From positions 24,229,822 through 24,293,821 of the forward strand of contig JASCQW010000168.1 of assembly GCA_030264375.1 (NCBI GenBank): 64,000 nucleotides of DNA. Direction: 5' to 3'. Every line of letters begins with the position of its first letter. The first letter of the stretch is position 1. Position numbers and translations under genes: made by a program. A model generated the notes under the pieces. It ran no database searches and was not told the origin of the DNA. It saw only the letters and a program-made list of their open reading frames with translations. Shown piece by piece: positions 59,101-60,768 of this stretch. This stretch comes from Carcharhinus longimanus (lineage: Eukaryota).

Positions 59101-60768
59101 TCAACAATAAGACCCATTCGGCCCCTTGGCTACACATGAAACCCATCAAGGCTCGTCCAATTGTGACCACTGGGAGCTTCAGGTTACTTTGTCCAGTCAA
59201 CAAGAAGTTGCCTGTGTCACAAGGGTCAGTGAAGCACTGTGCAACCACCACTCAAAGATGACTCCCAGATTAATTACTAATAAGAAAACACAACATTACA
59301 AACTAGCAGCCAGCTCCAACCTACAAAAGGACAATAAAACTGAACCTGCTGGCAAGAAGATTATACATTTCAGGAACATGTTTAATTACTTGGGTAATAA
59401 AATACTCCATTAATCACCCACACACACGTCACTGGATAGTGAGTAGGCGAGGACAATGGTCTGAGTTTCACTTCCCTAAATCTAAAAGCATCAAAGTTAA
59501 ATGAAACATCTCCATTACTGTGTGCCTGGTTGCAATCGCCTATCTCTCTGTTCAAACATAACAGGTGTAGCCTCCTCAGAACGGGGTGTTTTATTTTGTT
59601 TGACTCTGCATTTCACAGATTATCAGAGATACAAGAGACCAGAACAAAAGGGTGGCTGAAGCCAGTCTGTTATTTCATGCAGCACGGCAGATAGCTGAAT
59701 ATAAGGACAATTCTGAAAGACTTAATAAACCCTCAGATGCATTCTTCTGAAACTGTTCAGCAGTAATAACAGGAGGCATTATTCAGAATTAGCTCCATAG
59801 ACCAAGCTTTGCCAGTTTCATTAATAAAAAATTAGCAGACTCATCCAGCTAATTAACAATGGCAATTCCACCTTACAATCTTCACCAAATAATGTTGCTT
59901 CATAACTCAACATCCCAAAAAGCTAGTCTCAGCAATGTTTATGTTAATGGATATACTTTCAGAGTAGTGCAAACTGACAGTCCTCCCTGCGCCCAGCATA
60001 TCATCAACTTAGCTGTCACACTCCGCACTCCCTCCATTTTCATCAGCAAACAGTACCTGCCTGGACACATCCCCAAAGCACAGATATCATTCTTCCTTCT
60101 AACCCTGTACGATTCACTCTGACTTTGAAAGCTGCCAATGAAGCATGTTAGCACCACTGAGATCCAAGTTTGACCACAGCAATTGGAAGGTCACCAACAG
60201 TCCCAGACCTCAGCAGATCTCCAGTGATCCCAGAGATATGGAAATCACCAATAGTCGTAGAGATCAACAGATCACCAACAGTCCCAGGGATCAGCAGATC
60301 TTCAGTGGTCCCAGCAAACAGCAGATCACAAACAGCCCCAGAGATCAGCAGATCATAAGCAGCCTCAGAGATCAGAAGATCACCAACAGTCTCTGGGATC
60401 AGATCACCAACAGTTGATGCAATCCTCGTGAATACAATGTATTACCCTTTAAAACACTGTTGTGGGAAATTATCAAAGAGCAGCTCATTGCTGCATGTCT
60501 CTGTAAGGAAGTTTTATTCGTGTTTAATGCAATGGCCCTCAGTTTTAAGCTATAGATCAGTTCTGCGGACAGGTGGAAAGGTGACTGTAGAAAATCTAAG
60601 CTACAGTGACTAACCTGTGGGGTCCAGGAGGGAGTGTTGGTTTCATGGAGTTCATAGGGTTCATTGGTGGCTGCATGGGCAGTTTACCAGGGGTGTCGTT
60701 CTGACGGCTCTTCTGGTGACGCAGTAACAGGAGTCGCCCTAAATCCTCGCACCACGATGACAGGAGAG
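22996..60768 (-). CDS. ZMIZ2: Zinc finger MIZ domain-containing protein (ZMIZ2-like, ZMIZ1-similar); 18 coding exons, 5'-truncated
   Basis: All exons are GT-AG and phase-consistent (2915 nt). Poly-Ala/Thr tract, [12 protein letters not shown] domain, [34 protein letters not shown], and C-terminal [12 protein letters not shown]2 versus ZMIZ1 is inferred from diagnostic residues and the neighbouring gene. Confidence 0.75.
23613..23640. repeat. (TG)n microsatellite
   Basis: Direct inspection. Confidence 0.95.
24320..24347. repeat. (TG)n microsatellite
   Basis: Direct inspection. Confidence 0.95.
27118..27363 (-). CDS. ZMIZ2: ZMIZ exon (246 nt)
   Basis: [19 protein letters not shown]...[11 protein letters not shown]. 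Confidence 0.95.
29179..29342 (-). CDS. ZMIZ2: ZMIZ exon (164 nt)
   Basis: [54 protein letters not shown]. Confidence 0.95.
30010..30605 (-). mobile_element. LINE (CR1/L2 clade) 3' fragment
   Basis: Shared with 51340-51990 and 17580-17810 (ATGGGAACACCACCACCTGCAAGTTCCCCTCCAAG-type motif on the minus strand). Confidence 0.6.
31798..32045 (-). CDS. ZMIZ2: ZMIZ exon (248 nt)
   Basis: [64 protein letters not shown]... Confidence 0.96.
32495..32905 (-). mobile_element. DeuSINE (SacSINE1-like)
   Basis: tRNA-like head, Deu-domain-like GAGGTGCC..TTTGGATGAGATATTTAACCAAGGCCCC, and L2-like tail. Confidence 0.65.
33669..33737 (-). CDS. ZMIZ2: ZMIZ exon (69 nt)
   Basis: [22 protein letters not shown]. 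Confidence 0.95.
34605..35072 (+). mobile_element. CR1 LINE 3' end
   Basis: [44 protein letters not shown], and (TTCTATG)n tail. Confidence 0.9.
35207..35274 (-). CDS. ZMIZ2: ZMIZ exon (68 nt), SP-RING
   Basis: [22 protein letters not shown]. Confidence 0.97.
35575..35735 (-). CDS. ZMIZ2: ZMIZ exon (161 nt), start of SP-RING/MIZ finger
   Basis: [53 protein letters not shown]. Confidence 0.97.
37917..38022 (-). CDS. ZMIZ2: ZMIZ exon (106 nt)
   Basis: [35 protein letters not shown]. Confidence 0.97.
38250..38378. mobile_element. Non-autonomous DNA transposon (MITE)
   Basis: Terminal inverted repeats GGCCAGAATTCT...AGAATTCCGGCC; related copies near 60-190, 23415-23580 and 37110-37305. Confidence 0.6.
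39020..39275 (+). mobile_element. Young CR1 LINE (collapsed in a gap)
   Basis: [23 protein letters not shown] before the gap and a CR1 3' tail after it. Confidence 0.85.
39877..40157 (-). mobile_element. HE1/V-SINE-like element
   Basis: V-domain and CR1-like tail; family copies at 40350-40550 (+), 53070-53245, 54585-54875 and 61025-61325 (-). Confidence 0.8.
41270..41830 (-). mobile_element. CR1 LINE 3' fragment
   Basis: [35 protein letters not shown]. Confidence 0.85.
42368..42578 (-). CDS. ZMIZ2: ZMIZ exon (211 nt)
   Basis: [25 protein letters not shown]...[11 protein letters not shown]. Confidence 0.97.
43045..43530 (+). mobile_element. DeuSINE (SacSINE1-like) with internal insertion
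   Basis: tRNA-like head (TGGCTCAG..GTTCAAGCCC), Deu-like GAGGTGCTGTCTT..GAGACATTAA..CTCAGGTGGA..CCATGGCACTA, and tail AAAGGTGCT..AATGCAA. Confidence 0.7.
43548..43683 (-). CDS. ZMIZ2: ZMIZ exon (136 nt)
   Basis: [44 protein letters not shown]. Confidence 0.95.
45561..45726. repeat. Palindromic element with two inverted hammerhead-like cores
   Basis: Arms TATTGGTGAAAAAA..TTGCACTCATCAG and CTGATGAGTGCAA..TTTTTTCAGAAATA; centre AACATGTT. Confidence 0.75.
45792..45852. repeat. 20-bp tandem repeat, about 3 copies
   Basis: AAGTTCTGCTGAAATAGTGG units. Confidence 0.85.
46132..46303 (-). CDS. ZMIZ2: ZMIZ exon (172 nt)
   Basis: [56 protein letters not shown]. Confidence 0.95.
50412..50486 (-). CDS. 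ZMIZ2: ZMIZ exon (75 nt)
   Basis: [25 protein letters not shown]. Confidence 0.92.
50624..50806 (-). CDS. ZMIZ2: ZMIZ exon (183 nt)
   Basis: [14 protein letters not shown]...[10 protein letters not shown]. Confidence 0.95.
51188..51335 (-). mobile_element. Penelope-type terminal fragment with hammerhead motif
   Basis: Minus strand CATCTGATGAAGGAGAAGCACTCCGGAAGCTAGT..AATAAA..GTTGGACTTTAACCTG. Confidence 0.65.
51340..51990 (-). mobile_element. LINE (CR1/L2 clade) RT 3' fragment
   Basis: Minus strand encodes decayed [33 protein letters not shown] motifs. Confidence 0.8.
52491..52769 (-). CDS. ZMIZ2: ZMIZ exon (279 nt)
   Basis: [20 protein letters not shown]...GVKRPYPGE. Confidence 0.95.
53630..53925 (-). 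mobile_element. V-SINE-like element with alternative 3' tail
   Basis: Full tRNA head and V-domain; tail ..GGGGATTTTCACAGTAACTTCATTGCAGTGTTAATGTAAGCCTACTTGTGAC..; copies at 61868-62135, 30660-30770 and 45735-45795. Confidence 0.8.
54264..54462 (-). CDS. ZMIZ2: ZMIZ exon (199 nt), alanine-rich tract
   Basis: [66 protein letters not shown]. Confidence 0.96.
55616..55836 (-). CDS. ZMIZ2: ZMIZ exon (221 nt)
   Basis: [23 protein letters not shown]...[16 protein letters not shown]. Confidence 0.95.
55955..56082 (+). mobile_element. Penelope-type terminal fragment with degenerate hammerhead motif
   Basis: CACTGGACGAAGGGGCAAACCCTGAAAGCTTGTG..AATAAA..TTGGACTTAAACCTGGTGTTG. Confidence 0.6.
56756..56870 (-). 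CDS. ZMIZ2: ZMIZ exon (115 nt)
   Basis: [38 protein letters not shown]. Confidence 0.95.
57315..57439 (+). mobile_element. Penelope-type terminal fragment with near-intact hammerhead motif
   Basis: CAC CTGATGA AGGAGCAGCACTCC AAAA GCTC GTG. Confidence 0.65.
60190..60414. repeat. 27-bp minisatellite, about 8.5 copies
   Basis: Consensus ATCACCAACAGTCCCAGAGATCAGCAG. Confidence 0.9.
60615..60768 (-). CDS. ZMIZ2: ZMIZ exon (154 nt)
   Basis: (A)[50 protein letters not shown](S); cacag| and |gttagt. Confidence 0.92.

Follow-up and report, generated by a model that had tools for sequence, protein, structure and literature searches.

Exon structure of the window gene

A 64,000-nucleotide stretch of the oceanic whitetip shark (Carcharhinus longimanus) genome, here called the window, carries an exon of a ZMIZ-type gene and raises the question of which paralog, ZMIZ1 or ZMIZ2, this exon belongs to. 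A sequence-only reading had assigned it to a ZMIZ2 that keeps the ancestral full-length architecture. Our analysis assigns it to a shark ZMIZ1 of ordinary type, and ZMIZ2 is located on another contig. On the joint reading, which we hold with high confidence, the window gene is shark ZMIZ1, the locus on a second contig (C166) is a ZMIZ2 that keeps the N-terminal TPR-like domain (TPR), and the bony-vertebrate lineage likely dropped the TPR exons of ZMIZ2.

The splice sites and the reading frame define the focal exon as 154 nt on the minus strand (60768-60615), with the phase-1 acceptor described before (...ctctctgcacag) and a phase-2 donor (AG|gttagt), encoding 50 amino acids. As had been recognized earlier, it opens with the end of the TPR: residues 1–24 (codons 60695..60766, minus strand) are the last 24 of the human ZMIZ1 N-terminal domain (Zmiz1_N; residues 101-124 of PDB 5AIZ, E 5.9e-8). 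A Pfam scan of the 50-residue piece alone gave no match. Proteins annotated as zmiz1a in whale shark and chimaera are 96% identical to the exon, and the features described are real rather than due to chance. It also contains a PPGPH motif (60617..60631, minus strand), identified by comparison of ZMIZ proteins as the ancestral long form of PPxPH and three residues longer than in bony-vertebrate ZMIZ1. The second in-frame Met, at exon nt 105 (ATG at 60662..60664, minus strand), corresponds in the alignment to the Met at which bony-vertebrate ZMIZ2 starts; judged from the sequence, this ATG is only a candidate start codon in the window gene. Part of a 401-base stretch was contained in 24 sequencing runs, and in the 11 guessed to be RNA the word share was 0.35, close to the focal exon's own share of the 401 bases and thus no evidence of a splice junction into 60768.

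Upstream TPR exons, which the earlier reading had placed beyond position 64,000, were found on the same contig (C168), 84-138 kb upstream of the focal exon: coding exons 1 (C168:24428764-24428832), 2 (C168:24415662-24415775) and 3 (C168:24374433-24374538). PF18028 (TPR-like Zmiz1_N) matches two of them, in frame with the rest of the model. Their predicted join to the focal exon, coding exon 4 (60615..60768), has compatible phases and recurs in the database models of relatives. The remaining coding exons, all on the minus strand, are 5 (56756..56870), 6 (55616..55836, with a second in-frame acceptor 3 nt upstream), 7 (54264..54462, with an alanine-rich tract), 8 (52491..52769), 9 (50624..50806), 10 (50412..50486), 11 (46132..46303), 12 (43548..43683, where an alternative acceptor at 43728, also used in models of whale shark and gar, would add 15 residues), 13 (42368..42578), 14 (37917..38022), 15 (35575..35735), 16 (35207..35274), 17 (33669..33737), 18 (31798..32045), 19 (29179..29342), 20 (27118..27363) and 21 (22996..23103, including the stop codon). 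Exons 15 and 16 encode the first and second halves of an SP-RING/MIZ finger (PF02891, above the cut-off), the core of which is nearly identical to that of ZMIZ1 and places the gene in the ZMIZ family. The predicted gene thus has 21 exons (3 upstream and 18 in the window), all with GT-AG borders, and 3204 nt with one terminal stop and no internal stop, giving 1067 amino acids. Its layout of N-terminal TPR-like domain, alanine-rich tract, SP-RING finger and C-terminal tail is the usual one of full ZMIZ1. The length equals that of the primate ZMIZ1 (Zimp10, RAI17) protein P0059, with which 112 of 118 TPR residues are identical, and identity to whale shark zmiz1a outside the TPR is 98%. Orthologs of the window gene are already annotated, and the gene itself is ordinary.

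Placement of the window gene in ZMIZ1

Phylogenetic trees were built from about 905 columns outside the TPR and the focal exon, with partial and redundant proteins excluded; the main tree (LG+G4) had 41 rows, Ciona and Limulus being excluded from it and from the AU tests, and mixture-model trees were built from subsets of 21 and 20 rows. Contrary to the earlier assignment, the window protein grouped with bony-vertebrate ZMIZ1 (100/99; LG+G4, 41 rows). Under the mixture model, support for uniting shark with bony ZMIZ1 was weaker, at 75/81 with hagfish and 91/94 without it. Grouping of the window gene with ZMIZ2 was rejected (AU p=2.9e-24), and the bony ZMIZ2 (Zimp7) clade excludes it. Identity was 81-87% to 11 bony ZMIZ1 proteins and 64-69% to 16 bony ZMIZ2 proteins. 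At 68 diagnostic columns the window gene shows the ZMIZ1 state in 53 and the ZMIZ2 state in 4, and none of 26 ZMIZ2-derived states.

The idea of a ZMIZ2 with its TPR retained in the window draws on those four columns, comprising the PPxPH form, a lysine-glutamine state in the exon with the alanine-rich tract and a glycine close to the C-terminal end, and on the next gene, a cyclophilin without mitochondrial presequence (exons 1-4, 4151..6247, minus strand) that is PPIA-like in appearance. The four ZMIZ2 states look ancestral; the window gene differs from bony ZMIZ1 in retaining the ancestral PPxPH and a few other ancestral states. PPxPH is also found in hagfish, whose ZMIZ has a TPR and PPGPH like the window gene. 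The longer motif reported earlier is present, but it occurs in ZMIZ1-type proteins of hagfish and chimaera as well and is therefore no marker of ZMIZ2.

The cyclophilin is the first gene of a tandem cluster that ends, about 100 kb downstream of the window gene, in a presequence-bearing PPIF-type gene, and is followed at about 320 kb by the only match to the ZCCHC24 family in the genome (PF17180); a profile search for ZCCHC24 with PF13695 missed it and returned two unrelated loci. The PPIF label denotes the Arg-rich N-terminal extension, and a PDB search with exon 1 of the PPIF-type gene alone was not significant (best E 0.08). These are ZMIZ1-type neighbours, as PPIF and ZCCHC24 lie beside ZMIZ1 in the human gene order; the extra cytosolic-type cyclophilin copies set the shark locus apart from vertebrate ZMIZ1. 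A check for a second ZMIZ locus next to PPIF had been suggested earlier; it is the window locus itself that adjoins the PPIF-type gene. An RPS24 exon and an OGDH-family match on C168 each lie 10 Mb away, and the OGDH, PPIA and PURB families instead flank the C166 locus, which is also the better ZMIZ2 candidate. On these grounds, it is scarcely credible that the window gene is ZMIZ2.

A TPR-bearing ZMIZ2 at a second locus

The second locus, which comprises C166 together with small contigs and is called the C166 locus here, carries a homologous 154-nt exon that includes the TPR end and likewise has an ATG at nt 105, so ZMIZ2 in this shark does not lack the TPR; the earlier view that shark ZMIZ2 keeps the full TPR architecture fails for the window gene and holds for this locus and its orthologs. 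All four trees placed the C166 locus with bony ZMIZ2, the support being 97, 100/99 (LG+G4, 41 rows), and 99/97 and 99/96 (mixture model). Its grouping with ZMIZ1 (AU p 0.0024) and a shark-only duplication (AU p 9e-8) were both rejected. Around it the gene order is an upstream OGDH-family exon, ZMIZ, a downstream cyclophilin and a PUR gene, for which the best Atlas cluster bears the name Pur-beta, in a near tie with Pur-gamma (0.92 each). A PDB search gave no paralog name to the OGDH-family exon, and the choices of OGDH over OGDHL and PPIA over PPIF are partly our assumption. Fused database models from bony vertebrates show pairings that match the shark loci: ZMIZ2 with cyclophilin (P0158), ZMIZ2 with CAMK2B (P0176) and ZMIZ1-type with cyclophilin (P0193).

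In the oceanic whitetip genome, pieces of the ZMIZ2 TPR lie on separate contigs, exon 1 on C162 and exon 4 (the TPR end) on C2117. Exons 2 and 3 were not found in searches of the genome with PF18028, with a relative's TPR and across about 220 kb of C166. Many 10-kb pieces of the C166 region are 40-78% N, and assembly gaps likely explain the missing exons. C166-type orthologs with the whole TPR occur in five sharks and rays (Mustelus, Heterodontus, Scyliorhinus, Narcine and Amblyraja), that of Heterodontus matching PDB 5AIZ with E 1.2e-61; short models occur in Heptranchias and Pristis. Such chondrichthyan proteins, named 'ZMIZ1-like' in databases, have the full layout and the same exon as the window gene, to which they are about 75% identical. 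The name is misleading, because they group with ZMIZ2; by their sequences they are misnamed ZMIZ2 proteins, orthologous to the C166 locus.

The C166 type could instead be a third paralog, derived from the vertebrate genome duplications and kept only by cartilaginous fishes, in which case there would be no TPR-bearing ZMIZ2. A third paralog sister to ZMIZ2 would give an identical tree, the databases use the label ZMIZ1-like, and the assembly around C166 has gaps and some misordered pieces. Diagnostic columns are also mixed: Heterodontus has 29 ZMIZ2 against 25 ZMIZ1 states, and 8 of 26 ZMIZ2-derived states but 7 of 17 scored ZMIZ1-derived ones, while chondrichthyan ZMIZ2 shows 72-76% identity with bony ZMIZ1 but 67-72% with bony ZMIZ2. 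Against a third paralog stand the four trees, the AU test against joining ZMIZ1 and the gene order given above; the genome search also found only two split-exon MIZ loci, and the first 16 residues of the shark short models are those of gecko, turtle and coelacanth ZMIZ2. A third paralog is consequently improbable.

Retention and probable loss of the TPR

The TPR motif is present in 6 of 9 chondrichthyan ZMIZ2-type proteins and in none of the 81 others, 55 of which start at the matching internal Met. As had been proposed, the bony-vertebrate ZMIZ2 start position is that of the second in-frame Met of the focal exon; the loss is likely bony-vertebrate-wide, and not mammalian. Because five sharks and rays keep the TPR and 0 of 81 others do, the loss likely dates, on the proteins compared, to stem bony vertebrates and not to mammals. 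A 39-residue N-terminal extension of lungfish ZMIZ2 was rejected as a TPR relic, since 1669 of 2000 shuffles scored as high.

The single ZMIZ of hagfish and invertebrates (Haliotis, Limulus, Antedon and Ciona), which branches either before the split of ZMIZ1 from ZMIZ2 or at its base (the hagfish position with support of only 94/70 and 49/15), has a TPR that is 50-88% identical to primate ZMIZ1. A single loss in ZMIZ2 is the simpler history, because hagfish and invertebrates have the TPR. Gene conversion or exon capture might conversely have returned the TPR of ZMIZ1 to chondrichthyan ZMIZ2, and the high conservation of the TPR would make its own tree weak. However, the ZMIZ2 TPR has diverged (its identity to primate ZMIZ1 is 72-81%, whereas that of the window gene is 95%), and the focal exon and its C166 homolog differ at 46 of 154 bases; regain is very improbable.

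The ancestral vertebrate gene would have encoded a TPR, with Met codons clustered in exon 4. Once it had been duplicated into ZMIZ1 and ZMIZ2, the bony-vertebrate lineage would have dropped the three upstream exons of ZMIZ2, its start becoming fixed at exon-4 nt 105, probably through sole retention of a pre-existing short isoform; we infer this ancestor and these steps. The long PPxPH form was found in 60 of 62 scorable ZMIZ2-type proteins. Among 95 scorable proteins outside ZMIZ2 it occurred in 4, each from a chondrichthyan or a hagfish. From this comparison, the long form is ancestral and bony-vertebrate ZMIZ1 lost three residues.

Implications for ZMIZ function

Mammalian ZMIZ1 binds Notch1 through its TPR and acts as a co-activator of transcription (PMC13687641), and by analogy the window gene likely encodes a transcriptional co-activator that binds Notch1 via its TPR. 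In sequence, the TPR is 72-95% identical to the solved structure. R14 and E34, which we take to contact Notch1, are conserved in all 14 TPRs compared; this is no evidence of Notch binding, because invertebrate TPRs keep them too.

A 2026 review calls the Notch-binding domain unique to ZMIZ1, and a literature search returned no paper reporting a TPR-bearing chondrichthyan ZMIZ2 or the bony-vertebrate timing of its loss. On present sequences, it is somewhat probable that sharks and rays have two TPR-bearing ZMIZ co-activators, and that the ZMIZ2 TPR was lost once, in the bony ancestor, via the exon-4-Met short isoform. The TPR is neither a ZMIZ1 innovation nor unique to ZMIZ1 among vertebrates, and its loss at the root of the bony-vertebrate lineage likely produced the short form of ZMIZ2. 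These results, a by-product concerning the C166 paralog and not the window gene, are useful for work on ZMIZ, on Notch and on what becomes of genes after duplication, and the TPR of shark ZMIZ2 is a natural variant (72-81% identical) suited to mapping the residues needed in Notch1 binding. If the scenario is true, shark ZMIZ2 may still be a Notch cofactor, and ZMIZ1 would have its sole role in T-cell development driven by Notch only in bony vertebrates.

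Structure of the window gene

The focal exon (154 nt, window 60768–60615, minus strand) has a phase-1 acceptor and a phase-2 donor, and its translation agrees with that of the sequence-only reading. It contains, as that reading had held, the end of the N-terminal TPR-like domain (TPR), with residues 1–24 matching the final part of this domain in the solved human ZMIZ1 structure (PDB 5AIZ; E 5.9e-8). The closest proteins among the best 120 of 189 matches were the zmiz1a-named proteins of whale shark and Callorhinchus (96% identity). Eighteen exons of the gene were located within the window by tblastn. 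Three upstream TPR exons, anticipated beyond position 64000, lie on the same contig (C168: 24428764–832, 24415662–775 and 24374433–538), and an intron of ~84 kb precedes the focal exon. Every one of the 21 exons in the predicted model follows the GT-AG rule, and together they amount to 3204 nt and 1067 aa with a single terminal stop; the TPR exons therefore exist and, in these predicted joins, their phases are compatible with the focal exon. An alternative acceptor (window 43683–43728) lengthens exon 12 by 15 residues and is an old splice option, because whale shark and gar ZMIZ1 models carry a matching insert.

Phylogenetic placement of the window gene and its paralog

The phylogenetic analysis was based on an alignment of 43 proteins from which the TPR and the focal exon were removed, so that the trait under study had no vote in the tree. 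Under LG+G4 (41 rows, 908 columns), zmiz1a of whale shark and Callorhinchus grouped most closely with the window gene, followed by 11 bony-vertebrate ZMIZ1 proteins (100/99), while a second ZMIZ locus of the same genome grouped with seven chondrichthyan 'ZMIZ1-like' proteins and then with 16 bony-vertebrate ZMIZ2 proteins (100/99). All three alternatives were rejected by AU tests: the window gene grouped with ZMIZ2, as the sequence-only reading assumed (p 2.9e-24), the second locus joined to ZMIZ1 (p 0.0024) and a duplication confined to sharks (p 9e-8). A mixture model kept the ZMIZ2 clade (99/97, 99/96) with the window gene outside it, and gave a weaker ZMIZ1 clade (75/81 with hagfish, 91/94 without). 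The window protein is 81–87% identical to bony-vertebrate ZMIZ1 and 64–69% to ZMIZ2; at 68 diagnostic columns it has the ZMIZ1 state in 53 and the ZMIZ2 state in 4, with none of 26 ZMIZ2-derived states. The window gene is thus almost certainly an ordinary ZMIZ1. Chondrichthyan ZMIZ2 evolves slowly, is nearer ZMIZ1 by identity and is mixed on the diagnostic columns (29 versus 25 in Heterodontus), which speaks against a clean ZMIZ1/ZMIZ2 picture; the mixed columns and higher ZMIZ1 identity likely explain the database name 'ZMIZ1-like'.

The PPxPH motif near the end of the focal exon had been taken as a mark of ZMIZ2. Its long form was found in 60 of the 62 scorable proteins among 90 of ZMIZ2 type, and also in 4 of 95 scorable non-ZMIZ2 proteins (from 102 of at least 550 aa), namely whale shark, two Callorhinchus models and hagfish. 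Since these species and the ZMIZ2-type proteins share it, the long form is a common ancestral state, and three residues were deleted in bony-vertebrate ZMIZ1.

Other variants were observed in database proteins. ZMIZ1 of gar, reedfish and sturgeon (P0108, P0215, P0065) carries 12 inserted residues, including a CxxC-like motif, within the TPR at the exon 3–4 junction. Lizard ZMIZ1 (P0033, P0044, P0058, P0078; squamate models only) has an insert of ~23 residues directly after the focal-exon end. A protein of the bird Willisornis named ZMIZ2 (P0021) is probably misnamed, because it carries the ZMIZ1 form of the focal exon.

A fragmented second ZMIZ locus

A genome search with the MIZ finger returned seven matches: four PIAS-like in appearance (judged by one exon holding most of the finger), two in the window gene and one on C166. 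A whole-protein search, whose stricter first pass makes the recovered pieces a lower bound, located the remainder of the second locus on C166 (18.40–18.74 Mb), C2117, C12242, C9988, C18007, C8306 and C43. C2117 holds a homologous 154-nt exon with the TPR end (108 of 154 bases match the focal exon). Exon 1 (on C162, 100% to a Mustelus model) and exon 4 were located; exons 2 and 3 were not found in the C. longimanus genome searches. This region (C166:18.40–18.74 Mb; C162:41728105; C43:9408725) is poorly assembled: one exon is 300 kb out of order, beyond an OGDH-family exon, two are placed close to N gaps in other large scaffolds, and further exons are on five small contigs.

Gene neighbours

Human ZMIZ1 adjoins PPIF, ZCCHC24 and RPS24, and human ZMIZ2 adjoins OGDH, PPIA and PURB. 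The window gene is followed downstream by at least three cyclophilin copies, then by one with an Arg-rich N-terminal extension, putatively of PPIF type (C168:24.15–24.14 Mb), and then by the genome's only PF17180 (ZCCHC24) match (23.93 Mb); C168 also carries an RPS24 exon (14.35 Mb) and an OGDH-family exon (14.13 Mb). The ZMIZ gene sought beside PPIF is thus the window gene itself. The order on C166 is OGDH-family exon (18.54), ZMIZ (18.71–18.74), one cyclophilin (18.76–18.78) and a PUR gene (19.53). Human chromosomes 7 and 10 carry the ZIMP pair as well as OGDH/OGDHL, which fits block duplication (PMC2453138); that source confirms only this placement and fit, not the individual human neighbours.

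The tandem cyclophilin cluster behind ZMIZ1 (window 4151–6247 and C168:24141836–24196923) comprises at least three copies and ends in the presequence-bearing PPIF-type member. Its first copy, inside the window, lacks a presequence and is PPIA-like in appearance, which may have fed the earlier ZMIZ2 call; first exons of the other non-PPIF-type copies in the cluster were not found. Intronless copies similar to the window one occur at two other places in the genome (L011, L012), pointing to high expression of the window copy, and the shark's main cytosolic cyclophilin may derive from the PPIF locus, not PPIA. In the cyclophilin beside ZMIZ2 (C166:18764811–18778651; L042, L043) an intron separates two halves that make up one exon in mammalian PPIA, and the C168 copies have the same split layout. 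Two plus-strand ORF stretches between ZMIZ1 and the cyclophilin (window 9376–13000) look by eye like decayed LTR-retrotransposon pol pieces.

Distribution and probable loss of the TPR in ZMIZ2

Retention of the TPR by shark ZMIZ2, proposed for the window gene, does not apply to that gene, which is ZMIZ1, but holds for its paralog. Among 90 ZMIZ2-type proteins (from the best 120 of 246 matches and one further search), the TPR motif was present in six, all chondrichthyan (Mustelus, Heterodontus twice, Scyliorhinus, Narcine and Amblyraja), and, among the matches listed, in none of 81 non-chondrichthyan proteins spanning reedfish, gar, bowfin, teleosts, coelacanth, lungfish, amphibians, reptiles, birds and mammals. 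In Heterodontus, 115 residues of the ZMIZ2 TPR align with 5AIZ (E 1.2e-61). No Callorhinchus ZMIZ2-type protein was among the 120 matches listed (of 246). The TPR is also present in hagfish, Ciona, crinoid, abalone and horseshoe crab. The idea that the mammalian ZMIZ2 start codon is an internal Met of this exon was supported, with the start Met aligned with exon nt 105 in 55 of the 81 non-chondrichthyan proteins among the matches listed. Among database predictions, short Heptranchias and Pristis ZMIZ2 models also begin there, and the start of two teleost ZMIZ1 models is an earlier Met within the homologous exon.

Public Pfam annotation already shows the TPR on chondrichthyan ZMIZ2 proteins, there named ZMIZ1-like. 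A 2026 review describes the Notch-binding domain as unique to ZMIZ1, and the top-ranked matches of literature searches, which covered few subscription journals, included no paper on chondrichthyan ZMIZ2. Mammalian ZMIZ1 acts as a co-activator whose TPR binds Notch1 (PMC13687641 and 10.1101/2021.05.14.444216), and shark ZMIZ1 very probably acts likewise. Layout, orthology, neighbours and TPR distribution in database proteins were shown here; the three upstream exons of ZMIZ2 would in all likelihood have been lost once, in stem bony vertebrates, and this loss may well have proceeded through fixation of a pre-existing short isoform.
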